The notes below the pieces were generated by a model that had not been told where the DNA came from, searched no databases, and saw nothing but the letters and a program-made list of their open reading frames with translations. Positions 35,090-48,847 of a stretch of DNA of 64,000 nucleotides are shown one piece after another; the first letter of the stretch is position 1, and the number at the start of each line of letters is the position of its first letter. The stretch comes from Escherichia phage phiWec188: the sequence record LC739537.1; one strand, written 5' to 3'. A program made the position numbers and the translations under genes.

Positions 35090-35557
35090 TCAGGCTCCTT
35101 TACGATTATGCAAACAATCTTTCACTCGTTCTTGCACCCACTCTACACGAAGCTTGTTTTCATGCGCTCTGCTGTGGTTATACTCTCGCACATATTCTTC
35201 GTAGTTCACATTAAAGGGAACACTGACAGACAATCCTGCGCAACGGAATTGTTTCTTCATTTCTTTTAATGTTGCATCACTTATGGCACAAAGCTGTTTT
35301 GCCTGTTCCTCACTGAAATTACGGTCCCACATCTCATCCCAGATAAAGGTATCCAAGCATACACATAACCCATTCCTTGTGCGCTCTTTGGTATGATGAT
35401 CAGCAAGCCAACTTTCATAGAAGGCTAACAACATTGGACTACTCAACGGAACATTTTTACTCTCTTGCATGATAATCTCCTCTCTTGGTTTCATGACAAA
35501 CATCGTAACTCTCAACGAGGAACATCTTACGATCAATCCTCGGCAATTACAATTCAT
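35090..35557 (-). CDS. paralog family A member 9 (start uncertain)
   Basis: LLAFYESWLA, GLCVCLDTF, VPFN, RVEWVQERV; likely starts at internal Met (MQESKN...). Confidence 0.5.
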   Translation of the reverse strand: MNCNCRGLIVRCSSLRVTMFVMKPREEIIMQESKNVPLSSPMLLAFYESWLADHHTKERTRNGLCVCLDTFIWDEMWDRNFSEEQAKQLCAISDATLKEMKKQFRCAGLSVSVPFNVNYEEYVREYNHSRAHENKLRVEWVQERVKDCLHNRKGA

Positions 35558-35814
35558 TTATCATTGGTATTCCCTATCAATTATTCCATATATACCTGTT
35601 ATTTTTGACACCCCTTTGGTCAAATATTAATCGGCAAAATATCTGGGGGGAGAGATTATTTCGATACCCTCTGTTCCTGCGATTTATCGGCAAGAATATC
35701 ATCGGCAAAGAGACAGAAAAGCCTTTGGTAGCAAGGATTTATGGCGAGTACGTCAGGACTGCTGAACGCGAATTTTCCGGCCCCTCCACTTCTGCGCGCC
35801 GGAATCTTCAAATA

Positions 35815-36020
35815 TCAATGAGAATAATTATCATTATCATTCGCATTCAATAACTTAGGCGATCTTTTCCCCTGCTATAAGGTTGGGCCTAACTTAAGCA
35901 CTACTTTTTAAACAATCCTTTATCAATCAACTACTTAACAACCTAAACATATGATTACTACGGTGTAAAGGTGCCGCCCATAACAGACTACCTATAAAAT
36001 AAATGAGAATGATTATTATT
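35815..36020. repeat. two copies of a TGAGAAT-N-ATTCTCA-type palindrome (Fur-box-like)
   Basis: atgagaataattatcattatcattcg near 35817 and aatgagaatgattattattc near 35998; same motif recurs six times at 48.85-49.07 kb. Confidence 0.45.
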
Positions 36021-36317
36021 CAGACAATTCTTACAACAAATCGACCAATAAATCAAGATTTTTCTGATTTTATTTACGTTTAAGAGAACGTGCTCAACAT
36101 ATCCGCCATAGGCGGCTATCTTTCCCCCGCAAACATTAAGCCTTTATCTTTCATCTTTCTGTATATCTGTACACTATGCAACCTGTCGCTATTCGCTCAT
36201 GTTGCTACGTGCTAATCCTTCACCATGCTAATGATGATCACACTGAACGATAGTGATAACTCATGTAATAATTACATTGATTATTATATTACGCTTAACT
36301 ATTCTTACATACAATGC

Positions 36318-36440
36318 TAATAATAAGCCAGCGTAATTAGTGTAAGCGTAATACGCTTGCAATAATTGCAAGCTACATAATCACAAGAAATAACTATCAC
36401 CGATAGTTATGATTGTGGGGGTGTAGTTGGCTTATTATTA
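36318..36440. repeat. large imperfect palindrome with a perfect 19-bp core
   Basis: gcttgcaatAattgcaagc (36355-36373) flanked by inverted 11-mers aataataagcc / ggcttattatt about 110 bp apart. Confidence 0.5.
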
Positions 36441-36519
36441 GCTCGCTACGTGTCCGGCGTAGCGTGCTAATGATGAGGCTTGGAATGATTCATTTTACAA
36501 TTATTACAGTCTTCACTAT

Positions 36520-36990
36520 TTCGGCAATAGGCACTATTTTACTAATAGTTGTTATTTTAATGATTTCATTTGTTATCGTTAGTTAGTTGGTTGTTTTGTC
36601 GTGTTATCGTTATCTTGCTTAGTATTCATCATGGTTTGATTGTTTGTCGTTATCAATCATCTTTCTATTATTCCTTTGATTATGATTAGTTTGCTTATTG
36701 TTTTAGGTTGTTGGTTGGTTAGTTGTTGCGAACTATTATCAACATTATAGTTATGCACTTATATTGCATAGATACGCAAGGTTAGATGATAATGGTTATC
36801 ATTGCACTGGAAAGGAGGAAAACAGCCTTTTTCGGTTGTTTGTTGTTGGTTGTTGATCGATTTTAACCGCTCTAAATAGCTCTCTAACAGCCTGTTGCCC
36901 TGGGAGGTATGGTTATTCGTTTGCTGGTTGATTAGCTCGATACCGCGATTTATTCATTTTTGTTCTGTGTCGGTTTTTCATAGGCGGAAG
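36520..36990. repeat. G+T-rich low-complexity region with iterated gttatcgtt / ttggttgtt motifs
   Basis: Plus strand almost devoid of C/A runs; repeated gttatcgtt, ggttggtt; no ORF of 60 aa or more across 35.85-36.9 kb. Confidence 0.5.
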
Positions 36991-37009
36991 CTATCAACAT
37001 TATTTGGAC

Positions 37010-37040
37010 AAAAAGAAAGGGCGCTTAGTGCGCCCCTTGT
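37010..37040 (-). terminator. intrinsic terminator (minus strand)
   Basis: Minus strand: ggggcgcACTAAgcgccc then tttcttttt; just 3' of gene 37052..37471. Confidence 0.7.
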
Positions 37041-37051
37041 TTTGTTGTCGA

Positions 37052-37471
37052 TTATAAAGCTTCATAGATTGAGTATATCCGGTTCGCCAGGTCATTACGA
37101 AAGCGGAATTTTTCATCACGTTTAATCATCAGATCCTTAAAACCGCATTCTTTCAATGCTTCGTTAACTTTACTGCGGCATACTTTCATATTGTCCTGCG
37201 CGTCACCAATAAACTTATTGCTATGATGCATTGCTTTGATCTCTTCTTCCAGGACCAGGGCAACTACACGGATCGGATCAAGCTGATACGCGGTAACATC
37301 CATGCGGCATTGTAAACGGCTTTTAACGTCTGCCACCGGATATACTGCAACCTCTTCCCCGTCAACGTTCACGATAACCAGTTTACCATCAATTTCGAAG
37401 CCTTTAGCGGCGCTACCGTGACAAAAAGCGTTGTCGAAGGAGTAAGCTGGATTATTTGATTTAATGTTCAT
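37052..37471 (-). CDS. hypothetical protein
   Basis: 139 aa ORF; aaggacaacacc ATG context. Confidence 0.55.
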   Translation of the reverse strand: MNIKSNNPAYSFDNAFCHGSAAKGFEIDGKLVIVNVDGEEVAVYPVADVKSRLQCRMDVTAYQLDPIRVVALVLEEEIKAMHHSNKFIGDAQDNMKVCRSKVNEALKECGFKDLMIKRDEKFRFRNDLANRIYSIYEAL

Positions 37472-37577
37472 GGTGTTGTCCTTTGTTTCGTTTCGTTGTT
37501 TGCTGCCAGTGAGTTAAATATAATATAACGCCGATCCCCTGTCAATAGGGGATAGCGCATTATTTACATTTCTTTAC

Positions 37578-37605
37578 GTTAAAGGGCGCTTAGTGCGCCC
37601 TTGTA
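37578..37605 (-). terminator. intrinsic terminator (minus strand)
   Basis: Same gggcgcTTAGTgcgccc hairpin as at 37010; 3' of gene 37611..37979. Confidence 0.55.
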
Positions 37606-37610
37606 CAATC

Positions 37611-37979
37611 TTACTTTGTGCGGTTGTAAACGTTATCGCGTTCAACCATCAAGGCAAGGCGGATCAGTTGATCAGTTGTATCGCGTAAGCTGTCAGGCCA
37701 TGTTTTATTGTTCCAGCTATCTAAATTTGATTGAATATAGGTTTCAATGGCTTGATCCATATTGTCGAACAAGTTTGCCTCCAGGCTCTCGGCTGTTTCA
37801 CACTGGAAAGCATCAGCGACACTATTAATCAATAAGCAAGCCAGTAGATCAGCGTTGCGCCAATTTTTACGGATAGTTTCATCTTTCAGATAACCAACGA
37901 GATCAACCTTTGCGCCAGTGGTGGACGTTGCGATCACTTCTTGCGCTTTTTCAACTGCTTTAATTGCTGATTTGCTCAT
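37611..37979 (-). CDS. hypothetical protein
   Basis: 122 aa ORF; gaggaaaag RBS. Confidence 0.55.
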   Translation of the reverse strand: MSKSAIKAVEKAQEVIATSTTGAKVDLVGYLKDETIRKNWRNADLLACLLINSVADAFQCETAESLEANLFDNMDQAIETYIQSNLDSWNNKTWPDSLRDTTDQLIRLALMVERDNVYNRTK

Positions 37980-38057
37980 CTTCTTTTCCTCTTTGTGGGC
38001 TTGCTGTATTGCTCGCCCTACGCAATAACTATAAGTTAACAGGGTGTATAAAGCAAG

Positions 38058-38291
38058 CTATTTTTTATAAAATTTTTCTGCTGTGATATTCTTCCCTGTA
38101 GGCTTAACCGCTTGCAAGATCTTATCATGCGCCGGACGTCCAAAGGAATAAGATCCATAAACGGTAAACCAATAATCCCCGTCAGGTTGAACGGTTACGG
38201 CGGCGTAGGGTGTACCTCTCTCATTATCACCGATAAAGTGTGAAACATTGCCGTTAACGTTCGATTTAGTGCTTTTAATTTGTCCGATCAT
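38058..38291 (-). CDS. hypothetical protein
   Basis: 77 aa ORF; followed upstream by promoter-hairpin cassette at 38310-38370. Confidence 0.5.
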   Translation of the reverse strand: MIGQIKSTKSNVNGNVSHFIGDNERGTPYAAVTVQPDGDYWFTVYGSYSFGRPAHDKILQAVKPTGKNITAEKFYKK

Positions 38292-38309
38292 GGTGTTATT
38301 CCTATATTA

Positions 38310-38370
38310 GACGGGAAACATTCCCGCCCTACGTGATAAATAATAATATAAGCGTGATCCGGTGTCAATA
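38310..38370 (-). promoter_or_regulatory. promoter plus 5' hairpin cassette (copy 1 of 24)
   Basis: Minus strand: TTGACA, 17 bp, TATTAT, then cgggaaTGTTtcccg hairpin, then RBS/ATG of 38058..38291. Confidence 0.5.
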
Positions 38371-38542
38371 GGTAGAATTGTAAAGATTTGATAGTTTATC
38401 TCTTTGATGTTTTGTTGTTTGATAGGTGTTAGCTATCAATATATAGCGGGGTCGTCCGGTGATTACCTCCCCCGTTGCCAGTGCCGCCCGTTCAATAAGC
38501 ATAACAAAAAACAGGACAAAAACAAGCCCTGTTTTGTAAAGA

Positions 38543-38746
38543 TTAGATGATCTGCATATCCTCCACGATAATTTCTAATTTCCAAACAAGATGATCTAAG
38601 CTCCCTGATAAAAATGATTCCGATACATAACCGCCATCGGACACCGTAGCAAGGATCTCGCCATTTGCTTGCTCTTTGATTTGAACATCCAGGCGGTTAG
38701 CCTTTGCTTTATTCAGGACGGCGATCAGGCGGTTAGCTGTAGTCAT
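38543..38746 (-). CDS. hypothetical protein
   Basis: ORF 38543..38779; ATG 38746 lies after the hairpin and ggaagg RBS. Confidence 0.5.
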   Translation of the reverse strand: MTTANRLIAVLNKAKANRLDVQIKEQANGEILATVSDGGYVSESFLSGSLDHLVWKLEIIVEDMQII

Positions 38747-38765
38747 GGTGTTTTTCCTTCCAGTT

Positions 38766-38826
38766 GTGAGCGGCACCATTGCCGCCCTACGAAATACATC
38801 TTACACTATCCGGCACATCATGCAAG
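38766..38826 (-). promoter_or_regulatory. promoter plus 5' hairpin cassette
   Basis: Minus strand: TTGCAT, 16 bp, TGtaAGAT, then ggcggcAATGgtgccgc hairpin. Confidence 0.5.
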
Positions 38827-38831
38827 CTATT

Positions 38832-39023
38832 TTATACTTCGTCACCTATATAATCAGATCTGTTCTTCTCTGTCATACGCTTAAGCAATTCCTGCATATG
38901 GCTTATAGCTTGCAATGTGTCTTCTTCCAGGCTTGAATCCACATAATCAGGATCATTCTTTACCTTGCTATGGTTGTGATAACGCAACGCTGCTAATACC
39001 TTTCTAACTTGTTCTGCATTCAT
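38832..39023 (-). CDS. hypothetical protein
   Basis: 63 aa ORF; aggag RBS. Confidence 0.45.
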   Translation of the reverse strand: MNAEQVRKVLAALRYHNHSKVKNDPDYVDSSLEEDTLQAISHMQELLKRMTEKNRSDYIGDEV

Positions 39024-39035
39024 TTTTATTACTCC

Positions 39036-39170
39036 TTAAAACCAGGTGCCAACCGTTTCCAATAGGTCACTGACTACCAGAACAACACCGATTAGCACAT
39101 ATTTAACCAGGAAGGGGATTAGCGCCAGCGTTGCTACTATGATCCCCATTGTCATGATTACCTTTCTCAT
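39036..39170 (-). CDS. small membrane peptide (44 aa, not in ORF track)
   Basis: Hydrophobic (GIIVATLALIPFLVKYVLIGVVLVV); start overlaps stop of 39167..39457 (ATGA). Confidence 0.35.
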   Translation of the reverse strand: MRKVIMTMGIIVATLALIPFLVKYVLIGVVLVVSDLLETVGTWF

Positions 39171-39457
39171 TGTTGGCGGTTTACGTAAGCTTTACCGTTT
39201 ACGGTCATCGGTATGGCCTCAAGGTCTGGATCTTCCTTAAGGTCGCGTGCAAGCTCACCGCACCGGACACCCTCGAATCCGTGGTATTCTGTTTCCCCGT
39301 CCTTAAAAGTTTTAGCGGCAAGGCATAGGCGATAATTAACCCCGATCCGGTTTACTGCGTTGATATCGGTTAACGTGATCGATTCAGGCAAATCGTTAGC
39401 CATTACAGGCGCGTTAATACCAACAACCAGGGCAACTACTGCGATCATCTTTTTCAT
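39167..39457 (-). CDS. small secreted protein (signal peptide)
   Basis: MKKMIAVVALVVGINAPVMA signal-peptide-like N-terminus; 96 aa. Confidence 0.5.
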   Translation of the reverse strand: MKKMIAVVALVVGINAPVMANDLPESITLTDINAVNRIGVNYRLCLAAKTFKDGETEYHGFEGVRCGELARDLKEDPDLEAIPMTVNGKAYVNRQQ

Positions 39458-39508
39458 GTTGTCTATCCTCTTCCTATTGCGTTTAATGGGGCGTTGCCGC
39501 CCCGCTGA

Positions 39509-39733
39509 TTAATTACGTTGGCTGTTTTCTACTATCGACTTTAAAATAAAGTCAGTTACGCCCTTTGTGTCATCCGGCGGGAAGTTATCAGCATAGCACC
39601 AGGCATAAGCGCCATCAACTGGAAGCGGGAAGATATGCACGCTTAGATCCCCATAATCATATTCAGTTATTTCTACCTTGAGATCCGACAATTCAGCCAG
39701 TTTAATAGCTTGTAACATTCTAACAATACTCAT
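39509..39733 (-). CDS. hypothetical protein
   Basis: 74 aa ORF; preceded by ggggcg..cgcccc hairpin element. Confidence 0.5.
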   Translation of the reverse strand: MSIVRMLQAIKLAELSDLKVEITEYDYGDLSVHIFPLPVDGAYAWCYADNFPPDDTKGVTDFILKSIVENSQRN

Positions 39734-39772
39734 AATCTTTTCCTTTCTGATAGTGGGGCGTTGCCGCCCTTT

Positions 39773-40018
39773 TTAGAATTGACGCGTTACGCGATCGGTG
39801 TTTTCTTCCTTTACAACCTTACCTGTTGCTACCATTTCGCTGATTTTTTCATCGTTGATAATGTTGTTATTCTCTTTGATCCAGGTCCAACGATTACCCA
39901 TCAAAGTATTCCCTTTTAACGCATAATACCAAATGTTGTTAGGCATTTTGATCCAAGCCATACCGCGCGAATTTTTCGGGTCGTGGTAGATATTGCCAAT
40001 TTTAGTTGTCTGGTACAT
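39773..40018 (-). CDS. hypothetical protein
   Basis: 81 aa ORF; cassette at 40042-40098 upstream. Confidence 0.5.
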   Translation of the reverse strand: MYQTTKIGNIYHDPKNSRGMAWIKMPNNIWYYALKGNTLMGNRWTWIKENNNIINDEKISEMVATGKVVKEENTDRVTRQF

Positions 40019-40041
40019 GATGTTTTACCTTTTTCCAGGAA

Positions 40042-40098
40042 GCGGGAACTATTCCCGCCCTACGTGGTAAATATTATCATATTGACGATCCGTGTCAA
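40042..40098 (-). promoter_or_regulatory. promoter plus 5' hairpin cassette
   Basis: TTGACA, then TGATAATAT-type -10, then gcgggaATAGTtcccgc hairpin. Confidence 0.5.
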
Positions 40099-40118
40099 TA
40101 GTTTTTTGGAGTTTTTAC

Positions 40119-40520
40119 TTACAGGCCCAAGATAGCCCGTGCATCGTTACGCTGTTTAGTCTCAGTCATGATCATATTTAAAATGGTCGGATTAATATAA
40201 CCTTTCTCCATAGCTTCGCGGACTGGTACATCATAAGCACCGAAACCAGTGCGAACGATACGCACATCATTCAGATTAGTGTTATAGATCCCGCCTAAAT
40301 CAACCGACTGGAAAACGGCATCAACACTATATTCAGTGTTGCCATCGTTGACGTTTTCGATCTCAATGTTGCGAGACACCGCCCAACGTTTACAGCCTCC
40401 AATCAGGTAGCATTGTTCCTTTGTCAGATTACCATTGGAAACCGCATATTTCAGGGCTTCAGCGCCGAAAGTTTTAGCAATGTTAACAACGTCAGTATAA
40501 GAAAGGATCGTAATGTTCAT
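40119..40520 (-). CDS. hypothetical protein
   Basis: 133 aa ORF; cassette at 40541-40597 upstream. Confidence 0.55.
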   Translation of the reverse strand: MNITILSYTDVVNIAKTFGAEALKYAVSNGNLTKEQCYLIGGCKRWAVSRNIEIENVNDGNTEYSVDAVFQSVDLGGIYNTNLNDVRIVRTGFGAYDVPVREAMEKGYINPTILNMIMTETKQRNDARAILGL

Positions 40521-40540
40521 GGTTATAACTCCAAATGGTG

Positions 40541-40597
40541 AGCGGCACCATTGCCGCCCTACGTGGTAAATATTATCACACTGGTGATCTGTGTCAA
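40541..40597 (-). promoter_or_regulatory. promoter plus 5' hairpin cassette
   Basis: Minus strand TTGACA ... -10 ... ggcggcAATGgtgccgc ... RBS. Confidence 0.5.
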
Positions 40598-40622
40598 TAC
40601 TATTTATTCAATATAAATAAAA

Positions 40623-40847
40623 TTATGATGTGCGCTCAATTATGATAATGGTCTGTGGGATCTCGTTTTCTGCCACTATCAGGGCTTTTTTCTGCGTGAT
40701 AGTTATTTTAACACGTTGCAACGATGCGGTAAAGTCTTTCATTTCGTTATGTGCGGACTTGCTGCAATGCCAGATCTCAGGCTTACCAACTTGTAAGCCG
40801 CGTAAAAATTCCGTTTTGCCTGCTTTGTTCGTGAACATTTGTTTCAC
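40623..40847 (-). CDS. hypothetical protein
   Basis: 74 aa ORF. Confidence 0.45.
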   Translation of the reverse strand: MKQMFTNKAGKTEFLRGLQVGKPEIWHCSKSAHNEMKDFTASLQRVKITITQKKALIVAENEIPQTIIIIERTS

Positions 40848-40848
40848 C

Positions 40849-40953
40849 TTAACCGATACCGTGAGAAGATAGGATCATATTAGCCATAGTTGCAACCACT
40901 CCAACCGATAACGCCAGGCCAACTATTGCAACCGTGAAAATTTTCTCTAACAT
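40849..40953 (-). CDS. small membrane peptide (34 aa; start uncertain)
   Basis: ORF 40849..41052; ATG 40953 preceded by gaggg and located after the hairpin element. Confidence 0.3.
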   Translation of the reverse strand: MLEKIFTVAIVGLALSVGVVATMANMILSSHGIG

Positions 40954-41036
40954 GATGCTACCCTCTTTAATGGGCGTTGCCTTATTGCCCCGCCCTACGT
41001 GATACACTTTACCAGAAAACAAAATACTGTCAAGAT

Positions 41037-41174
41037 TTATTTTACTTCCCAAACGGAAAATTCACTACCTGGCGGGATCATTCTTTTAATCTTGTTTGCT
41101 GCTGCTACCAGGTCCACGGCTTGCACTGTAATAATATAACCAATTGTCGAGGCTGTTGCATTGAAAGTTTTCAT
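41037..41174 (-). CDS. small hypothetical protein (45 aa, not in ORF track)
   Basis: ATG 41174 preceded by gaggg; cassette hairpin at 41193-41210 just upstream. Confidence 0.35.
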   Translation of the reverse strand: MKTFNATASTIGYIITVQAVDLVAAANKIKRMIPPGSEFSVWEVK

Positions 41175-41232
41175 TATATTACCCTCACCATCGGCGGCAC
41201 CATTGCCGCCCTACAAGATGAATACTACGCGC

Positions 41233-41415
41233 TTACTTTGCTGTTGTCAACAAGGGGCGAAAAAACTTTTTGATCTGGCTTGCTGTTAGGCGCATATCTG
41301 CTTTGAGCGTTGCCAGGCGATAAGCCTTACCCTTAATCAGTTTATGGTGTCCGGTGCCGTTGCCGATGATAACATCAATTTCACACAATACACGGGAAGA
41401 ATCAATCTTTTTCAT
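41233..41415 (-). CDS. hypothetical protein
   Basis: 60 aa ORF. Confidence 0.45.
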   Translation of the reverse strand: MKKIDSSRVLCEIDVIIGNGTGHHKLIKGKAYRLATLKADMRLTASQIKKFFRPLLTTAK

Positions 41416-41463
41416 CTTGTTACCTTTCTTGTTATGGGGCGCTTGTCGCCCCTGGTTTATGGT

Positions 41464-41649
41464 TTATTTGACTATGTGACGATCATTATATTCAGTGTAA
41501 AACTCGCAACCATCGTCACGACTATCAAGTTTAACAATGTAACCAGTTTGATAACGTTCAATAGATACCATTGCATAAAACTTACCATTCAGGATATTTC
41601 TAACCAGATCGCCTTTTACCAATTCTTTCGTTTTCTTGTAAGTAGTCAT
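41464..41649 (-). CDS. hypothetical protein
   Basis: ORF 41464..41700; ATG 41649 downstream of hairpin. Confidence 0.5.
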   Translation of the reverse strand: MTTYKKTKELVKGDLVRNILNGKFYAMVSIERYQTGYIVKLDSRDDGCEFYTEYNDRHIVK

Positions 41650-41669
41650 GATGTTTTCTCTTCTGTTAG

Positions 41670-41726
41670 GCGGGGCGCTTGTCGCCCCTATGTGATACAT
41701 CTTATCAGGTTGATTCAGCTTGTCAA
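41670..41726 (-). promoter_or_regulatory. promoter plus 5' hairpin cassette (stem variant ggggcg/cgcccc)
   Basis: TTGACA, spacer, TGATAAGAT, then ggggcgACAAGcgcccc hairpin. Confidence 0.5.
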
Positions 41727-41727
41727 A

Positions 41728-41907
41728 CTATTTGTTAGCCGGATTATATGCCAGGACCGCGCCACTTGCTTTCACGCTTTCCGCTTCATAGTTGCGCAGA
41801 TCGTTTTCTGTAAGATTGAGCGCGATCACTTCCTCGATCTCAATACCAGTGGCAAGGGCGATCTCTTTAATGATGTTTGATGATCTGATAACGTTTACTG
41901 TTTTCAT
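41728..41907 (-). CDS. hypothetical protein
   Basis: ORF 41728..41964; ATG 41907 chosen (MKTVNV...). Confidence 0.45.
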   Translation of the reverse strand: MKTVNVIRSSNIIKEIALATGIEIEEVIALNLTENDLRNYEAESVKASGAVLAYNPANK

Positions 41908-41917
41908 GGTGTGCACC

Positions 41918-42037
41918 TTATAAGATGATTGATAAGATAGTGATAACGAAAGCGATAACACCAACGGCGATCGTAGTCTTACGCCCTTCGGATACTGCCG
42001 GATTCTCTACCGTGTATTCTACTGTGTATTTGTTCAT
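41918..42037 (-). CDS. small membrane peptide (39 aa, not in ORF track)
   Basis: ATG 42037 preceded by gagagga; C-terminal TM segment IAVGVIAFVITILSII. Confidence 0.3.
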   Translation of the reverse strand: MNKYTVEYTVENPAVSEGRKTTIAVGVIAFVITILSIIL

Positions 42038-42136
42038 TGTGTTATCCTCTCGCTTGCTTTGGGAACTATTCCCGCCGCCCTATGAATTAAATATACACTA
42101 TCTCAAAATGATTGCAAACCTTTTTCTAAATTATTT

Positions 42137-42421
42137 TTATGCAGTAAATAAACCATCGTTTACAACGGCGGCGATGATCTCCCGTGCCATTGATTCAGGG
42201 AACGGGGCGCTATAGTCCTGGCTTGTCTCGTCGCTGTCTGTTACCCAATGATAAGCCAACGAGTAAAAGCCTTTACTCCCTGTTTTCAGTGAAACGATGA
42301 TCACTCGGTTAAGTCCATCGGTAAACGTTGCCGTTAATGTGCTATCATCTTGCGTCATGTTGGACAAGTAAGCGGCATCATTAACCAGGGAAAACAGTAG
42401 CACCGTGTTAGCTTTAACCAT
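42137..42421 (-). CDS. hypothetical protein
   Basis: ORF 42137..42451; ATG 42421 after hairpin. Confidence 0.5.
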   Translation of the reverse strand: MVKANTVLLFSLVNDAAYLSNMTQDDSTLTATFTDGLNRVIIVSLKTGSKGFYSLAYHWVTDSDETSQDYSAPFPESMAREIIAAVVNDGLFTA

Positions 42422-42440
42422 AGTTTGATCCTCAAACGAG

Positions 42441-42497
42441 CGCGGTACCATTGCCGCCCTACGTGATACATCTTATCAGGTCTGATTATGGTGTCAA
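42441..42497 (-). promoter_or_regulatory. promoter plus 5' hairpin cassette
   Basis: TTGACA, 16 bp, TGATAAGAT, gtatcacgtag, then ggcggcAATGgtaccgc hairpin. Confidence 0.55.
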
Positions 42498-42503
42498 CCA
42501 CTT

Positions 42504-42689
42504 TTAAAGATATTTTATACTGATAACATTTTCAGGTTTAACCTGGTTATGATAAGCATCAATGTAAATCAAACCATCATTAGATAAGCCCAGGATCACG
42601 CCTTGCGCAATAAATCCGTATTCGTCGCGGTAACGGGCTGCTACTTTGTTCGTTGCGTTGTAGGCGGTTTTAATCTCGTTTAAGGTCAT
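42504..42689 (-). CDS. hypothetical protein
   Basis: 61 aa ORF. Confidence 0.45.
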   Translation of the reverse strand: MTLNEIKTAYNATNKVAARYRDEYGFIAQGVILGLSNDGLIYIDAYHNQVKPENVISIKYL

Positions 42690-42713
42690 GTGCTGTTATC
42701 CTCTCGTTAGATA

Positions 42714-42745
42714 TAAGAAAGGGCGCTATTTGCGCCCTTGTTTTG
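42714..42745 (-). terminator. intrinsic terminator (minus strand)
   Basis: gggcgcAAATAgcgccc hairpin with flanking A/T runs; third copy of this terminator type. Confidence 0.5.
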
Positions 42746-42892
42746 TTAGTCTTCCAGGTCCAGCCATGCACGTTTATCGGTGCGGTCGCGCTTAGTCTTG
42801 TTGCGCTTGTCGCCCTTGCGGACCACTTCTTCATTCCACGCTGCGCGAGTTTTGGAAGATTGGATTTTTTCGGCGCGATTAGATGTATTCAT
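42746..42892 (-). CDS. small basic protein (48 aa, not in ORF track)
   Basis: ATG 42892 preceded by agagga and the cassette at 42914-42972; replaces shadow plus ORF 42743..42982. Confidence 0.4.
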   Translation of the reverse strand: MNTSNRAEKIQSSKTRAAWNEEVVRKGDKRNKTKRDRTDKRAWLDLED

Positions 42893-42913
42893 GATGTTTC
42901 CTCTTTTTGTTGT

Positions 42914-42972
42914 GAGCGGCACCATTGCCGCCCTACGTGTTTAAATTTACTTTATTGTTTGATGCCTGTCAA
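42914..42972 (-). promoter_or_regulatory. promoter plus 5' hairpin cassette
   Basis: TTGACA ... -10 ... ggcggcAATGgtgccgc. Confidence 0.5.
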
Positions 42973-42988
42973 CTACTTTTAAAACTTT

Positions 42989-43342
42989 TTATTCGTGGGA
43001 AAGTGCAAGGATCACTCCTGCAAGGTATAGCCAATAGTTTTCCCTTTCTTTCTGGATCTTGCTTTCGCTGCTACGCTCGCTAATGTATCCCCAGGATGTT
43101 AACAACCGATCTACTTCCCAATATTCGAAAGCGATATTGATATCTGACGGTAAACCTTGTAACCATGAGGCTATTGCTCTGATAACGTTATGATTGTAGT
43201 ATTCTTGGTTATAGGGATACCAGTACTCATTCTTAAAACGTCGCATCAATTCCGCGATCTTCTCTTTCTCTTCTGTGATGCTATACTCGCTATAATCAAT
43301 TGAGGCCAGAATATAAAGTTTAATTGCATTTTGTGCTTTCAT
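42989..43342 (-). CDS. hypothetical protein
   Basis: 117 aa ORF; cassette upstream at 43362-43420. Confidence 0.55.
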   Translation of the reverse strand: MKAQNAIKLYILASIDYSEYSITEEKEKIAELMRRFKNEYWYPYNQEYYNHNVIRAIASWLQGLPSDINIAFEYWEVDRLLTSWGYISERSSESKIQKERENYWLYLAGVILALSHE

Positions 43343-43361
43343 GGTGTCTCTCTTCTGTTGT

Positions 43362-43420
43362 GAGCGGCACCATTGCCGCCCTACGTGTTACATCTTACCG
43401 GATTTTTAAAACTTGTCAAT
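43362..43420 (-). promoter_or_regulatory. promoter plus 5' hairpin cassette
   Basis: TTGACA, spacer, TAAGAT, then canonical hairpin. Confidence 0.5.
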
Positions 43421-43641
43421 CATTTTTCTACTATCATTTGATATCCTGTTTCAATGTTAGTAAACACCGTGATCCCGTCCTGGCGTTCACTCATAAGGAA
43501 GCAAGGCGCTAACATCCTTCCTACTTCCTTGCACTCGTTATAAGCGGCGGTGATATCTCCTGCTGCTTTGTCTTCGGTGGTGAATGTATCGTTCACGTAA
43601 ACTTGACCAGCGACAACGGCGACAATAGCGAAAGTGATCAT
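43420..43641 (-). CDS. hypothetical protein
   Basis: 73 aa ORF. Confidence 0.45.
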   Translation of the reverse strand: MITFAIVAVVAGQVYVNDTFTTEDKAAGDITAAYNECKEVGRMLAPCFLMSERQDGITVFTNIETGYQMIVEK

Positions 43642-43721
43642 GATGTTTTCTCTCTTTGTGATAAGTGGTTTCTCTTCTCAATAGCGCCTATTGAGCGGGG
43701 CGCTATTACGAAGGGCTAACC

Positions 43722-43889
43722 TTATTTGTTACGGCTTAACGTGCCCAAGTTATCAGCATGACGCAGACCAGGGAAGATCCACGCGCCTGATGTATCTTTT
43801 ACAGGGGCTTTAAGCGTAGCGCCCAGGTTGGCGGCGTTAACTTTACGTGCAACGTTGCGAGCGGCTTCACGGGTAGTAAAAGTAATCAT
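43722..43889 (-). CDS. small hypothetical protein (55 aa, not in ORF track)
   Basis: ATG 43889 preceded by agaggaaaa; hairpin variant ggcggtgg..ccgccgcc upstream. Confidence 0.4.
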   Translation of the reverse strand: MITFTTREAARNVARKVNAANLGATLKAPVKDTSGAWIFPGLRHADNLGTLSRNK

Positions 43890-43978
43890 GATGTTTTCCT
43901 CTTCTCTTTGTTAGGCGGTGGACCATTCCGCCGCCTTGATGTAATACAGTTTACTTTATTTTATGGGGATTGCAAGCT

Positions 43979-44194
43979 TTAATTTAAGATTGTTAGTGTA
44001 AAATTGTAATCCCCTGCCTGATATACTACCTTGTTGCTAAAAGTTCCAACACGTTTCACATTGCAATATATACCCATAACACTTTTTACATCTTTGATGT
44101 TCTTAACGCCTGTAATGTCTTTATTGAAATAATCGTGATCGGAAAATAAAACTCGACTTGCATTTTTTAACAGTGTGCGGATATTAGCCATCAT
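43979..44194 (-). CDS. hypothetical protein
   Basis: ORF 43979..44224; ATG 44194 after hairpin. Confidence 0.5.
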   Translation of the reverse strand: MMANIRTLLKNASRVLFSDHDYFNKDITGVKNIKDVKSVMGIYCNVKRVGTFSNKVVYQAGDYNFTLTILN

Positions 44195-44213
44195 GATAAT
44201 CTCTCTTCTTGCT

Positions 44214-44270
44214 GGCGGCACCATTGCCGCCCTACGTAATACAGTTTACTCTTTTTCTTTCCCGTGTCAA
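44214..44270 (-). promoter_or_regulatory. promoter plus 5' hairpin cassette
   Basis: TTGACA ... ggcggcAATGgtgccgcc. Confidence 0.5.
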
Positions 44271-44279
44271 CAATCTTTT

Positions 44280-44507
44280 TCAGATTAATTCGTCCAGGCA
44301 TAACAGGCGATCAACGTTGAGATCGGTCAGGCTGATGGTTGGCACCTGATAAGATTCGATGTACTCAACGCTCGCATATTCCCCAAAATTAGCAATAGCC
44401 CACTTATTCAAGATCTCACATACATCATTAATCTTTTTATTTGTTACAACGGCTATAACCTGGGAAGTGCCAACGGTGCCGGATACGCGAACAATATTGA
44501 TAGCCAT
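44280..44507 (-). CDS. hypothetical protein
   Basis: 75 aa ORF. Confidence 0.5.
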   Translation of the reverse strand: MAINIVRVSGTVGTSQVIAVVTNKKINDVCEILNKWAIANFGEYASVEYIESYQVPTISLTDLNVDRLLCLDELI

Positions 44508-44594
44508 GATTTTTCTCTCTTCTGTTAGGCGGGGCGCTTGTCGCCCCTATGTGATACATCTTACACTAATTTAAAACGTTGTCAACTGTTTTTA

Positions 44595-44834
44595 TTACAT
44601 TCCGACCATCGCGGCGCGGATCGCAGTAGTGCTATATTTGAAACCGTCTGGAGTCTTATCTTGTCCAGTCTCTTGTAAAAATAGCATCATATGACGGGCC
44701 GCATCATTGCGATTAGTGCTATCGTTAATAAAGTCCAGGGCCAACCGATACAATGATTCATCGTTGTTAATCCAAAGGCTTACATTCCAATGATTTTTAT
44801 TTTTGTGACCTAAGAACATTTTTGATTTAGCCAT
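44595..44834 (-). CDS. hypothetical protein
   Basis: 79 aa ORF. Confidence 0.5.
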   Translation of the reverse strand: MAKSKMFLGHKNKNHWNVSLWINNDESLYRLALDFINDSTNRNDAARHMMLFLQETGQDKTPDGFKYSTTAIRAAMVGM

Positions 44835-44923
44835 GATGTTAATCTCTCTTTGAGTGGGGCGGGAACTATTCCCGCGCCCTATGTAATACAGTTTACTCTT
44901 TTTATTCGTGCTGTCAACGTCTT

Positions 44924-45289
44924 TTATAAATCTTTTTTACGCTTAACATCGCTTGCATGACTGTATACAGCGATCCCATTGTCACGGCAAAAACGGGAAA
45001 GATAGCTGCCGCGTGAAAATTCTTTGCCTTCAAGGTTGATAACCTTGCTAAATTCTTCCAGGGCGACGGTATCAAAATGATCACCATAGCCATATTGAAA
45101 CGGAACGTTAACCACTTCAATCAATTTACCGCAGATCTCGACGTCCACACTTAAAGAAAAATATGTATTACCGTAGGACTGTTGAAACCAGCGACGGGCG
45201 CTAATGTGCACTGCTTCAATGCTGGATAGTTCGATTTTAGCAGTGTTAGCCAGGGTAGCATAAGCGGACACATTGATATTTTTAGCCAT
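44924..45289 (-). CDS. hypothetical protein
   Basis: 121 aa ORF. Confidence 0.55.
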   Translation of the reverse strand: MAKNINVSAYATLANTAKIELSSIEAVHISARRWFQQSYGNTYFSLSVDVEICGKLIEVVNVPFQYGYGDHFDTVALEEFSKVINLEGKEFSRGSYLSRFCRDNGIAVYSHASDVKRKKDL

Positions 45290-45386
45290 GTTCTTACTCT
45301 CTCTTTTTGGTTAGTGGGAAGTATTCCCGATAAAAGTTATTATGCTTGTACTATCGCCTATTGTCAATAGCACAAGACTAAAACTT

Positions 45387-45566
45387 TTAACGATAATCAT
45401 TATAGGCTTGATTGACCTGACGAATGTAACATTCGAAAGCAAGATCAATATATTCGTATTCATGCACATAATCCCCATAGGTTACTACATACATTCCTAA
45501 CGTTTCCTTATATGTCAGAAGAATGGAATCTAAGCCCACGATTTCAGTTTTTGCAATGATAGCCAT
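45387..45566 (-). CDS. small hypothetical protein (59 aa, not in ORF track)
   Basis: ATG 45566 located after cassette hairpin 45588-45605. Confidence 0.4.
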   Translation of the reverse strand: MAIIAKTEIVGLDSILLTYKETLGMYVVTYGDYVHEYEYIDLAFECYIRQVNQAYNDYR

Positions 45567-45587
45567 GATGATAACCTTTTTATTGTT

Positions 45588-45644
45588 GGCGGCACCATTG
45601 CCGCCCTACGTGATAAACTATAACAGAATTTTAAACAGTGTCAA
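45588..45644 (-). promoter_or_regulatory. promoter plus 5' hairpin cassette
   Basis: TTGACA, spacer, TAGTTTATCAC -10 region, then ggcggcAATGgtgccgcc. Confidence 0.5.
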
Positions 45645-45655
45645 ACGTTTTTTTC

Positions 45656-45901
45656 TTAGTTTGCGAAATATGGTGCGGCGGCTGATGCCGTTAAGCTCCA
45701 AGTGATTTGGCTATCGATCAAGTATTCTTCATTCTTGATCCGCACGGTATCAATCGAGAAGTTACTAAAAGGCTTGCTTTTAATTTTACGAACAACCGTT
45801 ACACGACGGTTATTTTTCATCTCTTTTAACTGAATCCAGGCGTAACCTTTTTCATTAACAAAGATTTCATTGTGATTGGTGATAGATGATAAGTGTTTCA
45901 T
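45656..45901 (-). CDS. hypothetical protein
   Basis: 81 aa ORF. Confidence 0.5.
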   Translation of the reverse strand: MKHLSSITNHNEIFVNEKGYAWIQLKEMKNNRRVTVVRKIKSKPFSNFSIDTVRIKNEEYLIDSQITWSLTASAAAPYFAN

Positions 45902-45991
45902 GATATTCTCTCTTCTGTTTTGAGCGGTGGACCATTCCGCCGCCCTATGTGATACAGCTTACTACTTTTTGAAACGTTGTCAAGGATATTT

Positions 45992-46273
45992 TTAACTGTA
46001 TGATCCGCACCGCTCGCAATAGTGATCATCGTCGTCATCTGCCGCCTGGCTGATAAAGTGATCAACCTTTGATTTCAGGCTTTTATAATTGTTCTCAACT
46101 TCCTGTAGTCGTCGCTGGTAATATTCCAGGGCTTGCACATATGCCGCTTGTTCGGTTTTCGCTTGCATCGATAAATTCATGCCGCGCGTTTCATCGTATA
46201 GCCAATAACCATCGTTGCATTCACTGATCGATAGGGTAGGGCTTAGTTTTTCGTGACTAATTACCTTGCTCAT
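45992..46273 (-). CDS. hypothetical protein (C-terminal CxxC)
   Basis: 93 aa ORF. Confidence 0.5.
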   Translation of the reverse strand: MSKVISHEKLSPTLSISECNDGYWLYDETRGMNLSMQAKTEQAAYVQALEYYQRRLQEVENNYKSLKSKVDHFISQAADDDDDHYCERCGSYS

Positions 46274-46283
46274 AGTGTCCGCC

Positions 46284-46475
46284 TTATAGAATGACTACGT
46301 TATCTTTTTCGTGCAATGTGGCGGTAATGTTACGCCCCTTGTTGCAAGTTAGCGAGATCTTGCGGTGATGCGGTGGCACTTTTTCAATGTGCGCTACTGT
46401 CATTGTGATCCGGTGCAATTCTACCTTGTCACCTGCTTTCAATGTTGCTACGTTGCCAGTGATATTTTTAAACAT
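46284..46475 (-). CDS. hypothetical protein
   Basis: 63 aa ORF. Confidence 0.45.
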   Translation of the reverse strand: MFKNITGNVATLKAGDKVELHRITMTVAHIEKVPPHHRKISLTCNKGRNITATLHEKDNVVIL

Positions 46476-46485
46476 GGTGTGCCCC

Positions 46486-46596
46486 TTACTTGAAAATGAT
46501 TGTTGTGATAACTGCTACGGTGATCCAAAATGGAACAACCAAGATAATAGCGTTAATCGTTCCAACTGTCAAACTGTTTTCTTTCTTGATCATCAT
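46486..46596 (-). CDS. small membrane peptide (36 aa; start uncertain)
   Basis: ORF 46486..46716 trimmed to ATGATG at 46596; a second 27-aa hydrophobic ORF (46604..46687) lies just upstream. Confidence 0.3.
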   Translation of the reverse strand: MMIKKENSLTVGTINAIILVVPFWITVAVITTIIFK

Positions 46597-46761
46597 GTTT
46601 TCCTTACAGTGTCCAAAGAATGATTTCAAGTGCAGCACGGAAACCAGGAATAAAATTGATTGCAAAAAACAGGGAAGTAGTAAACATTTTTCTATCCTTT
46701 CGGTTGTGAGCGGCACCGTTGCCGCCCTATGAGTTAACTATAAGTGATCACGTTTTACCTG

Positions 46762-47319
46762 TCAACCTAAATCATCAAAATAAAGATAATTTTTTTCGGC
46801 TTCTTTCTTCTCTTCTTGTGATGCCTCAAAGACTGGAAGGAAGTGATCAAAGGTGATGCACTCAACCGCGTGATCGTCTTCCTCTTCCTGGTCTTCCTCC
46901 TGGGCTATGGCTGCAATTTTGGCCAATTTCCTTTCAGCTTGGATCAGCTTACCATCTAATACGCTTTTTGCAGTACTGTACGCCGTCCAGGTGATGCGCT
47001 TACTTTCGAGCGCGGCATCAAGCGCCGCTATCTTGCTGGGGTATTCATCCAGGACACGAAAAGCCGGATCTACCTTGTACAGCGGATTATCTTTCGCGCC
47101 GTCGCTATCATCTGCGGCGCTTGCAATGTCAGCGTTACCATTTGCCAGCCAACCAGGGCGATCGCTGCGTGTTTTGGTATTCCCATGACTACGCGCCGAT
47201 CTGTTGCCTACTTGCTCGCCACTATAGCCAGGAGCATGATCGATCATGTCGTCCGGTATAATGCGCGGATCATTAACGTCATGTTTTACCCAGGACTGGA
47301 TCACATATTCGCGCCCCAT
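46762..47319 (-). CDS. hypothetical acidic protein
   Basis: 185 aa ORF; acidic C-terminal third. Confidence 0.55.
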   Translation of the reverse strand: MGREYVIQSWVKHDVNDPRIIPDDMIDHAPGYSGEQVGNRSARSHGNTKTRSDRPGWLANGNADIASAADDSDGAKDNPLYKVDPAFRVLDEYPSKIAALDAALESKRITWTAYSTAKSVLDGKLIQAERKLAKIAAIAQEEDQEEEDDHAVECITFDHFLPVFEASQEEKKEAEKNYLYFDDLG

Positions 47320-47579
47320 TATACACCCCTTTTAACAATCATTTCACACACAAAAAATAAGCTGGCGGAATCACGGCAAGGATAGAAAGATGTACGATAA
47401 TCTCTCACCCCTCCTTTTATGATCTCCGTGGTTTTACCTGATAGCACATTGTAAATAGTGTAACTTGTCGGACTGTTTTTATATACCTTGCCAGGGTAGA
47501 TCATAACATAACGAGCAAGGTTATAAAATTCCTCATTACGAAAGGCTATGATCTTCCCGCATACCTTAAGAAAGTGCAC
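47319..47579 (-). CDS. hypothetical protein
   Basis: 86 aa ORF. Confidence 0.45.
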   Translation of the reverse strand: MHFLKVCGKIIAFRNEEFYNLARYVMIYPGKVYKNSPTSYTIYNVLSGKTTEIIKGGVRDYRTSFYPCRDSASLFFVCEMIVKRGV

Positions 47580-47589
47580 GTTAGCCCCC

Positions 47590-47862
47590 TTACAGCAAAA
47601 AGTTTACTTGTCTTGCTGTTAATGTAGTATCAACCATTTTCGGGCTTTTATAATCCACAAAGCGCGCGGTTTTTTCAATAGCGAAACCTAAATAATCTTG
47701 CTTGTTGAAATTACATTCTTTCTTAAATGTTTCCCGCGCTACGGCGATCGCTGCGTCCAGGGATAAGCGCCCGTCAATATTGATGTTAGCGAAAGATCCG
47801 CCACCGCTCATAGGTTTGCCAGTGGTGCCAGTTACGATCATTGTTGCGCTATATGATGCCAT
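47590..47862 (-). CDS. hypothetical protein
   Basis: ORF 47590..47898; ATG 47862 follows the hairpin. Confidence 0.5.
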   Translation of the reverse strand: MASYSATMIVTGTTGKPMSGGGSFANINIDGRLSLDAAIAVARETFKKECNFNKQDYLGFAIEKTARFVDYKSPKMVDTTLTARQVNFLL

Positions 47863-47884
47863 GATGATAATCTCTCTTAGTTGT

Positions 47885-47946
47885 GAGCGGTGGACCATTC
47901 CGCCGCTCTACGTGATACATCTTATCAGGTTGTTGCGTATTGTCAA
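47885..47946 (-). promoter_or_regulatory. promoter plus 5' hairpin cassette
   Basis: TTGACA, 16 bp, TGATAAGAT, gtatcacgtag, then gagcggcggAATGGtccaccgctc hairpin. Confidence 0.55.
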
Positions 47947-47952
47947 TACTTT

Positions 47953-48150
47953 TTATTCTTCACCCGCGATACGGCGGACACGTTCGGATTTAGTAGCGTG
48001 TTGGTCTTCTGTAATGACTCCCATTTCTAACAGGGAATCAATGAAAGATAGCACCGTTTCATGATCATCTTGAGGATGACTAAATTCAGTAAAGCCGTTT
48101 ACCACTACGTTGATTTGTCCTGCTTTCGCTACTATGTGCAATGTTGCCAT
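47953..48150 (-). CDS. hypothetical protein
   Basis: ORF 47953..48240; ATG 48150 downstream of cassette. Confidence 0.5.
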   Translation of the reverse strand: MATLHIVAKAGQINVVVNGFTEFSHPQDDHETVLSFIDSLLEMGVITEDQHATKSERVRRIAGEE

Positions 48151-48740: not shown

Positions 48741-48847
48741 ATATTTGTAAAGAAATGTAAAGATAAAATAATCGCTTGCTTTCCTGGCTGGATCTGTTAT
48801 TCTTATTACATGGCGAGGGGACACGGGAGCGCGAGATAATCACCGGA

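Follow-up and report, generated by a model that had tools for sequence, protein, structure and literature searches.

Predicted genome ends and a conserved right-end element in an ORF-free region of an Escherichia phage of the subfamily Stephanstirmvirinae

Stephanstirmvirinae genomes end in direct terminal repeats (DTRs) (PMC12695924), and the published repeats measure 328 bp in phage Schickermooser (PMC6563267) and, by PhageTerm, 342 bp in phage BME3 (PMC12210895). When exact terminal duplications were measured at the ends of deposited records, they were 343 bp in phi92, whose record (FR775895.2) annotates them as DTR-L and DTR-R, 329 bp in Schickermooser, and 328 bp in BI-EHEC. Here we analysed a 1.5-kb region free of long open reading frames (ORFs) at positions 35560-37050 of a 64,000-nucleotide stretch of Escherichia phage phiWec188 (LC739537.1), the whole of which is called the window below. 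An earlier note on this DNA, made from the letters alone, had offered the region as a replication origin, a packaging site, or a transcriptional control region. On balance, and with modest confidence, we read it as the terminal region of a linear, terminally redundant chromosome together with a cis-acting element for packaging or repeat regeneration.

The phage T7 genome (NC_001604) carries a 160-bp exact repeat, and 647 bp lie between the stop codon of gene 19 and the right repeat. This 647-bp stretch is non-coding except for the 150-bp gene 19.5 and holds the promoter phiOR, which flanks the repeat together with phiOL, and the leftward host promoter A0 is located just inside the left end. 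Arrays of short direct repeats, SRL and SRR, flank the T7 repeat, and phiOR reads across the junction and is needed for its processing. Models for the duplication of the T7 repeat involve strand displacement or primase-initiated synthesis, with a hairpin intermediate (PMC4281155).

Positions 35400-37300 of the window are 100% identical to Escherichia phage phiWec190 (LC739539.1). GenBank classes phiWec190 under Phapecoctavirus in the subfamily Stephanstirmvirinae, and a separate genus 'Wecvirus' has lately been proposed for it (PMC12695924). No coding sequence (CDS) is annotated in the GenBank record between window positions 35471 and 37051, and the claim that the region lacks ORFs was borne out, as the longest ORF on either strand between 35854 and 36894 has 57 codons' worth of residues (57 aa). 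Since the flanking genes on both sides are all on the minus strand, genome orientation is the window minus strand throughout. Homologues of the region were found in 139 phage records by a sensitive search. The main alignment contained 17 genomes, 12 of them Phapecoctavirus-like and five phi92-like or more distant, and counts of within-group variability refer to the 12 close, Phapecoctavirus-like relatives. Three records with other stated hosts, OR584014.1 ('Pseudomonas phage PsgM04F'), MG065650.1 and MG065689.1 ('Campylobacter phage B15/A110a'), are 76-91% identical to the coliphage region and match its architecture throughout. The hosts given for them are probably mistaken, or else these phages were contaminants or coliphages carried over.

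Probable genome ends and terminal repeat

The match between the region and phi92 extends to the right end of the phi92 record, into its 'right end direct terminal repeat' feature. The records of phi92, Schickermooser, BI-EHEC, and WPEC4/6 all end at the position corresponding to 35764/35765 of the window, the BME3 record begins there, and the records of Schickermooser, BI-EHEC, and phi92 start exactly at AGC. Since homologous DNA is duplicated at both ends of the relatives' genomes and the boundary motifs are shared, the region is very probably the joint of the two physical genome ends, and we hold the identification of the termini and of the DTR with high confidence. The region appears as a 'concatemer junction' because the assembly joined both genome ends, and the DTR sequence is present in a single copy in the window because the assembly collapsed both copies. 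The packaging-site option of the earlier note gained from this result, as the region holds a direct terminal repeat and both conserved end-cutting motifs:

35764-36094: predicted DTR of 331 bp, starting at 36094 and ending at 35764 in genome orientation; boundaries mapped by alignment to relatives
36091-36098, minus strand: predicted cut motif GTTG^AGCA at the DTR start (left genome end); first genome base 36094
35760-35767, minus strand: predicted cut motif GTTC^AGCA at the DTR end (right genome end); last genome base 35764

The order of features in genome orientation is the last right-end gene, its terminator (37038-37016), about 0.95 kb of non-coding DNA (37015-36095), the DTR (36094-35764), a leader of 200-290 bp, and the first left-end gene.

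The boundary motif GTTN^AGC is common to both DTR ends, in the same orientation, in every lineage examined. In the relatives the repeat boundaries read ...GTTG^AGC... and ...GTTA^AGC..., with the repeat starting after ...TGTTG and ending at ...CGCGTT(A). TGTTG^AGC is invariant in 17/17 genomes and was also found in all new metagenomic lineages, and TCGCGTT(A/C)^AGCA is present in 17/17 genomes. The spacing between the two cut motifs is 329-353 bp in most lineages and 401 and 412 bp in two of them (L027 and L041). A scan of IMG/VR with the DTR-start motif found one contig. Four lineages (L018, tuntematon; L006, muut; L024; L033) carry the DTR-start motif TGTTGAGC in two copies, 24-67 bp apart, and in tuntematon the doubling is a 58-bp duplication. 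With the motif doubled, there would be more than one possible left end, or the repeat would be longer.

The deposited phiWec190 record was opened about 15 kb away from the region and has no DTR annotation. Its two ends overlap by 148 bp, at window positions 20933-21080. This overlap runs into a CDS and appears to stem from the assembly rather than from a physical terminal repeat. The published statement on DTRs at the ends of these genomes (PMC12695924) may refer to the 148-bp overlap.

The conserved right-end element

Four features lie between the last right-end gene and the variable DNA that borders the DTR:

36312-36480, plus strand: structured element of 169 nt with six helices, predicted from covariation, a strand test, and a covariance model
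36520-36990, plus strand: C-depleted, G/T-rich tract, defined by composition and conservation
36925-37015: most widely conserved block, ATAmCGCGATTTATkCA ... CTGTG ... ATAGG-N-AGCTATCA
37016-37038, minus strand: predicted intrinsic terminator (hairpin GGGCGC-N5-GCGCCC) of the last right-end gene (CDS 37052-37471, minus)

Conservation in related phages had been suggested as a check, and it was found: 36312-37040 varies less than the flanking genes across the 17 genomes and beyond. The best-conserved segment, 36320-37040, shows an identity of 0.9-1.0 in the Phapecoctavirus-like group versus 0.80-0.95 for neighbouring coding sequence, and across groups its identity is 0.5-0.9 versus 0.2-0.5. Variable sites number 16 of 166 in the structured element (36313-36478) and 73 of 476, with no indels, in the tract (36540-37015). 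The corresponding counts are 131 of 331 (40%) in the DTR (35764-36094), 143 of 218 (66%) in the spacer next to it (36095-36312), and 133 of 293 in the left leader (35471-35763). The earlier note had overlooked that the region contains a terminal repeat, that the palindrome cluster is strand-specific, and that conservation is higher in the tract than in the genes on either side.

In the structured element, a closing stem of 15 bp (36316-36330 with 36428-36442) encloses helices 2-5, and helix 6, a 3' hairpin at 36444-36466, follows the closing stem. Helix 3 is the 19-bp palindrome at 36355-36373, which is perfect as the earlier note had said (9+1+9, GCTTGCAAT-A-ATTGCAAGC), and helix 5 is a 9-bp hairpin at 36389-36409. 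The enclosing palindrome described before, of roughly 120 bp, also proved real; it is an inverted repeat spanning 127 bp, whose perfect arms of 15 nt lie at 36316-36330 and 36428-36442. In an alignment of 10 distinct sequences (A2), the plus-strand consensus fold had 53 pairs, 11 of them with compensatory double changes. The paired cells of this alignment were 476 Watson-Crick, 50 G-U, and one mismatch on the plus strand, and the same pairs gave 51 mismatches on the minus strand. The minimum free energy was about -76 kcal/mol on the plus strand versus about -56 kcal/mol on the minus strand, the plus strand being better by about 20 kcal/mol in 10/10 sequences, and the plus-strand fold of 36305-36480 had a z-score of -8.7 against shuffles.

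Metagenome and viral contigs were then scanned with an invariant 19-base motif of the element, and besides chance matches 13 true homologues were found, six of which were new divergent lineages. In an alignment of 15 sequences, 48 pairs formed the six helices and 98.5% of the cells were paired. Two-sided changes were seen at 13 pairs, in 49 cells, and neither figure was reached in any of 500 shuffles; when partners were slid by 1-3 columns, pairing fell to 27-51%. The covarying helices were the outer stem, the 9-bp hairpin at 36389-36409 (6 of 9 pairs), and the 3' hairpin at 36444-36466. In helix 3, seven of the eight pairs never vary and one shows G-U, and its 8-bp arms are invariant in 15/15 lineages, which suggests that the 19-bp palindrome is a sequence-specific site. 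A covariance model built on the element recovered a single copy from the window, on the plus strand at 36312-36480 (188 bits). A search of the whole 64 kb against Rfam 15 gave no match at gathering thresholds, the best hit of a permissive Rfam scan of 35500-37100 was a microRNA model on the terminator (E-value 0.08), and a tRNA search of the window found nothing. As the predicted fold works on the plus strand only, the element must, to judge from its sequence, act in single-stranded form, as RNA or as DNA, and its strand is the antisense one with respect to every neighbouring gene. The loop of helix 6 contains GTGTC, a full T7-primase site, in 16/17 genomes.

Repeats are found around the structured element. 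TGCTAAT has four same-strand copies within 260 bp, and the repeat of the gctaatgatga type reported earlier is indeed present as GCTAATGATGA at 36227 and 36466. The phi92-like phages carry 2-5 tandem 16-nt units, with a copy number that varies by isolate, and phiWec190 has one degenerate copy. In inny (L005, 3487-3533) and muut (L006, 3501-3562) the unit is CTGTATGAAATGATTA and directly follows the structured element, at the equivalent of about 36500 in the window; in both phages these repeats are annotated as repeat_region.

The strand bias of the tract is real and the strongest of the 64 kb, but 'almost entirely G/T' was too strong a description, since 36520-36990 is 66% G+T. The 200-bp maximum of G+T is 0.73 at 36531, compared with a window mean of 0.503 and a standard deviation of 0.047 (about 4.8 standard deviations above), and the tract core (36540-36730) is 74% G+T, with 54% T and 9% C. 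The bias is better described as plus-strand C depletion, which is common to the phi92-like relatives; on the genome-forward strand the tract has 0.66 A+C, with 0.22 C and 0.13 G. The 'iterated' units of the earlier note are present but occur only once or twice, GTTATCGTT at 36572 and 36603 and GGTTGGTT at 36713. Tandem Repeats Finder reported only ATTATC x2.5 (35827-35841), within the first operator-like box described below, and GGTTGTT x3.1 (36834-36855) in the region. The tract itself carries short GTTATC and GGTTGTT repeats and a third operator-like box (36788-36806). The DnaA-box-like 9-mer TTATCAACA at 36736-36744 exists and matches at 8/9 positions, but it is ordinary and not conserved: the window plus strand holds five copies, and phi92-like phages have TTATCATTA at this site. 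No DnaA-box cluster was found in the region, which holds this 8/9 match and one 7/9 match. Four of the eight least stable 100-bp segments of the window are in the region. Intrinsically curved DNA was rejected, as TT/TTT show no phasing of about 10.5 bp.

The tract (36540-37015) is non-coding, and a hidden small gene was rejected: the counts of variable sites at the three codon positions (26/24/23) show no periodicity, and no ORF in the tract is conserved. A strong Shine-Dalgarno-like AAGGAGG is present within the tract on the plus strand (36813-36819). In phAPEC8-like phages, a GTG 7 nt after it opens a hydrophobic frame of 33 codons. This frame is probably not a gene, as the start codon is absent in phiWec190 and five of the 12 relatives have an in-frame TAG.

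The block at 36925-37015 was recognised in 25 distinct lineages, including Av-05 (Vequintavirinae) and FBKp34; it is conserved as sequence, without covarying structure. The terminator next to it has a genome-forward T-run in 25/25 lineages, and a plus-strand T-run is found only in Phapecoctavirus-like phages.

Flanking segments, operator-like boxes and promoters

The remaining features are located in the DTR and on either side of it:

35471-35763, minus strand: unique left-end leader, from the DTR end to the first annotated left-end gene
36095-36311: variable right-end spacer outside DTR-R, with a G+C hairpin and two TGCTAAT copies (36210, 36226)
36103-36115: G+C hairpin CCGCC-ATA-GGCGG, 8 bp outside the DTR-start cut site
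35819-35838: Fur-box-like palindrome in the DTR, the minus strand reading GATAATGATAATTATTCTC; 17/19 to the E. coli Fur consensus, 7-1-7 TGAGAAT-A-ATTATCA
36004-36023: second Fur-box-like palindrome in the DTR, TGAGAAT-G-ATTATTA; 14/19 on the minus strand

The first left-end CDS is at 35090-35470, and the longest ORF there extends to 35557. Within the leader, a block at 35560-35620 is conserved across genera (0.79-0.88 in all genomes, 0.75-0.83 between genera), and a weak promoter-like site whose -10 ends at 35580 is present in 16/17 genomes. At the position of the spacer hairpin, phAPEC8 has a different hairpin (ATCGC-GTA-GCGAT) and phi92 has none. The hairpin at 36103-36115 scores as a weak plus-strand terminator.

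The region of the first Fur-like box (35820-35860) is conserved across both genera, at 0.81-0.89, the second box shows a conservation of 0.85 at 36000-36020, and the third, weaker box in the tract is kept in 17/17 genomes. In the window as a whole, the best matches to the 19-bp Fur consensus were 17/19, 16/19, 16/19, and 16/19, compared with 0.075 matches expected at 16 or more. The 7-1-7 box occurs seven times in the window versus 0.43 expected, a count that none of 100 shuffles reached, and all seven boxes fit the pattern with at most two mismatches. Five boxes of the form TGAGAAT-N-ATTCTCA (48868, 48926, 48950, 49008, 49048) are clustered in a second ORF-free, low-stability region at 48844-49391, which may be a control region or an origin. 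That region and the terminal repeat have the motif ATTGAATGCGAAT in common, and aaactttagaatttg units recur in it. Its first 350-430 bp or so are kept in many relatives, the rest is lineage-specific, and it has no Rfam match. Nearby, a consensus promoter at 48607 is closely followed by an unusually G+C-rich stretch at 48650-48740 (ccaccccccacggcgtaaaggcggggc...cgccgggaggctgggcgc).

No report of Fur boxes in the genomes of lytic phages came up in a search of the literature. The putative Fur-like operators could be bound by the host Fur protein or by a phage protein. With two such operators in it, the DTR probably also regulates transcription at the genome ends. The control-region option of the earlier note was thus strengthened by the two operator-like palindromes but not by the promoters: no strong sigma-70 promoter was found on either strand in 35560-37050. 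Weak sigma-70 matches in the region numbered 14, compared with 10.6 expected, a level to be expected of A+T-rich DNA, and they give no clear direction of transcription. In contrast, the adjoining 37500-48000 is a promoter-dense, early-type region, with a perfect TTGACA and a good -10 on the minus strand every 300-500 bp before small genes (37545, 38368, 40098, 40597, 41033 ... 47946).

Possible roles and comparison with known systems

In the mechanism that we prefer, terminase or an associated nuclease would cut or nick both GTTN^AGC sites in replicated concatemers, and the lone repeat between adjacent genomes would be copied, leaving one at each end of every packaged genome as in T7-type short-DTR packaging. 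About 700 bp of right-end DNA (36312-37040) would be the cis-acting partner of cutting and repeat copying. The multi-hairpin element would function in single-stranded DNA or else as a transcript, and the clustered TGCTAAT copies, the C-depleted tract of invariant length, and the sequence block probably bind proteins. The element would mark the start of packaging and provide the priming site for synthesis through the repeat; a primer on the plus strand would be elongated in the direction of DTR-R and across it. The rV5 group encodes a primase-helicase of the T7 gp4 type (PMC3606486). That the conserved right-end element takes part in packaging and in regenerating the repeat we regard as possible rather than probable, and several points weigh against it. 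The DTR of phiWec190 at 35764-36094, in itself highly probable, is placed by homology only, and the packaging role of the 700-bp element would rest on position and on analogy. Known pac sites are much shorter than 700 bp. Protein-binding sites in double-stranded DNA would leave a pairing that tolerates G-T but not A-C unexplained, and no 10.5-bp phasing, as for DNA wrapped round a small terminase, was found in the region. The idea that the C-poor strand carries an array of primase sites of the T7 type (GTC) was considered and rejected, with five observed versus 8.6 expected and only the GTGTC of the helix 6 loop conserved. Moreover, relative to the repeat, the strongly biased tract and the most biased array of T7 are on different sides.

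The pairing that sits badly with double-stranded sites is what would be expected if the conserved element were a plus-strand non-coding RNA gene, with a 169-nt structured 5' domain and a U/G-rich, C-poor tail, antisense to all neighbours; its position beside the terminal repeat would then be incidental or regulatory. Acceptance of G-U but not of A-C, together with 13 covarying pairs, is a classical RNA signature, and the fold z-score of -8.7 and the absence of a coding signal agree with it. In Phapecoctavirus-like phages a plus-strand U-run comes after the 37019-37035 hairpin, and about half of the lineages have a -10-like hexamer (TACAAT, TATAAT, GATAAT, or TAGAAT) directly against the closing stem. 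However, the hexamer is absent from phi92-like lineages and the region has no strong plus-strand sigma-70 promoter, the U-run is missing in most lineages (inny has no plus-strand terminator), no Rfam family matches, the literature holds no transcriptome for the subfamily, and hairpins of single-stranded DNA would show the same G-T tolerance. The lack of a strong promoter and the restriction of the U-run to Phapecoctavirus-like phages therefore weaken the case for a discrete plus-strand RNA gene, which we consider rather unlikely. One long plus-strand RNA ending at the 37019-37035 hairpin is also unlikely outside the Phapecoctavirus-like lineages because the U-run is not conserved. A right-end replication origin, to which we give the same low weight as the RNA gene, does not exclude the other readings. 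TGCTAAT would be the binding site of an initiator, the C-depleted tract, with its low stability, would melt, and hairpins formed on the opened plus strand would serve as a priming signal. The four same-strand TGCTAAT copies in 260 bp, the 16-nt tandem iterons of phi92-like phages, the share of the least stable segments of the window, the strand-specific hairpins, and the GTGTC conserved in a hairpin loop are all in favour of this, and T7 has secondary origins at phiOL and phiOR, beside its terminal repeat. The skew check proposed in the earlier note spoke against it: the slope of cumulative GC skew changes at about 36 kb but there is no extremum, the extrema being at about 14 kb and 54 kb, where GC skew changes sign. 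The 9-mer of the lone DnaA-like box recurs in the window and is not conserved, there are few repeats and these are short, and the second low-stability ORF-free region (48.86-49.39 kb) is equally good on composition. Skew analysis likewise failed to place an origin in rV5 (PMC3606486). The TGCTAAT cluster, the tandem repeats, and the low stability would fit an origin or a terminase-recognition site equally well.

Control of transcription is a further, improbable explanation. Fur, or a phage repressor of like specificity, would act on the DTR operators to control end-proximal promoters, and the untranslated transcript of the forward tract would be a Rho-loading zone that backs the terminator and keeps late transcription out of the early genes. 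The 17/19 Fur match in the DTR (0.0 expected) and the excess of 7-1-7 boxes, five of the seven being in another intergenic region, are consistent with such a hub, as are the overlap of the boxes with weak promoter-like sites on both strands, the invariant forward-strand terminator, and the untranslated forward strand of the tract, with C at 0.22 versus G at 0.13. Yet it leaves unexplained the strand-specific covarying structure on the opposite strand and the near-identity and fixed 470-bp length of the tract, whose constancy cannot be due to Rho because Rho loading needs composition and not sequence. The region also has no strong promoter, unlike the adjoining early region with its perfect TTGACA every 300-500 bp. 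An unconstrained spacer, in which palindromes and bias arose by chance or slippage, would suit 36095-36311 and the DTR, where 66% and 40% of the sites vary. For the region as a whole it is hardly credible, being refuted by the low variation of 36312-37040 relative to the flanking genes and by the covariation and fold z-score of the element, and motif counts that no shuffle of 100 reached also speak against it.

The conserved element could thus serve in packaging and repeat regeneration, in starting replication, or as an RNA. A broader proposal, which we make tentatively, is that the structured element and the C-depleted tract together represent a kind of phage nucleic acid not seen before, acting in cis or in trans while single-stranded at a genome end; it could be a novel non-coding RNA, or a single-stranded DNA signal that primes regeneration of the terminal repeat. 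The DTR had already been recognised in the subfamily, and its novelty is confined to this record. There appears to be no earlier description of the boundary motif common to both ends, of the strand-specific structured element, of the ultra-conserved C-depleted tract, or of the Fur-like operators. Phages of the phAPEC8 and phi92 types are widely isolated and used in therapy cocktails, and most of their deposited genomes are opened at arbitrary points. The predicted true ends (36094 and 35764) and GTTN^AGC give a simple rule to orient and annotate more than 100 genomes, and the conserved element is a concrete candidate for a cis signal of packaging or replication in a group lacking known ones. 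If the single-stranded role of the element is true, it would be the first molecular handle on concatemer processing in myoviruses with short DTRs. If Fur binds to the boxes, early phage transcription, or the titration of Fur, would be linked to the iron status of the host.

Compared with the DTRs of phi92, Schickermooser, and BME3, the locus has homologous sequence, the same flanking genes, and the same boundary motifs, and its 331 bp are within the range of the family. It differs from them in that the phiWec190 repeat is unannotated and collapsed to one copy. No description of the GTTN^AGC motif or of the conserved right-end element was found in the papers that were read. Conservation of the element spans the whole of Stephanstirmvirinae, and the rV5-like Vequintavirinae may share its architecture. 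The rV5 map has an unexplained 'non-coding' box, and the genome was taken as circularly permuted (PMC3606486). In Av-05 and FBKp34 a gene array likewise closes with this conserved block and terminator, and the 1.7-1.9 kb beyond it contain no genes. Av-05 (L022, 1990-2230) also carries a GAGAATGGTTATCATT box, and upstream of its G/T-rich stretch and the conserved block it has hairpins and a 15-nt long-range inverted repeat of its own (GCGACACAATAACGC / GCGTTATTGTGTCGC), which suggests that the architecture of the element, though not its sequence, predates the subfamily. When Av-05 and FBKp34 were searched with the covariance model, only a weak match of ambiguous strand came up, at 20.8 bits in Av-05, and the cut motifs and TGCTAAT repeats were not found in the ORF-free stretches of the two phages.

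The E. coli Fur box (GATAATGATAATCATTATC; 7-1-7 TGATAAT-N-ATTATCA) is matched at 17/19 positions at 35838-35820 and at 16/19 at two sites near 49 kb. The phage boxes differ from it in favouring TGAGAAT over TGATAAT, and they are found in the terminal repeat and one intergenic region of a lytic phage rather than in iron-uptake promoters. By description, the structured element resembles single-strand initiation (ssi) sites of the G4 type and primosome assembly sites of the phiX type, which have 3-5 hairpins in about 150 nt and function on one strand, and primer RNAs of the ColE1 RNA II type, which have a structured 5' domain and a long tail; unlike these, it is located at the end of a linear genome.

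T7 differs from phiWec190 in several respects. No sequence resemblance to T7 was seen by eye, no similarity search having been made. The phiWec190 region has neither a phage RNA polymerase promoter nor a strong host promoter, and no promoter crosses the junction; to our knowledge no phage RNA polymerase is known in this family, and phage-specific promoters are possible. The T7 arrays are true 7-bp repeats (8 x CCTAAAG), whereas the phiWec190 tract is barely repetitive, and the phiWec190 element is larger, with pairing that is strand-specific by covariation. The two nevertheless share a short exact repeat with several hundred base pairs of largely non-coding right-end DNA (331 bp and about 955 bp in phiWec190), a G-poor, strand-biased forward sequence beside the repeat, and DNA nearby that forms secondary structure. 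The forward strand of the T7 SRL has 0.68 A+C and 0.12 G, compared with 0.66 and 0.13 in the phiWec190 tract, where A+C spans 0.66-0.74. By analogy, T7 is the closest known system in its way of working, not a homologous one.

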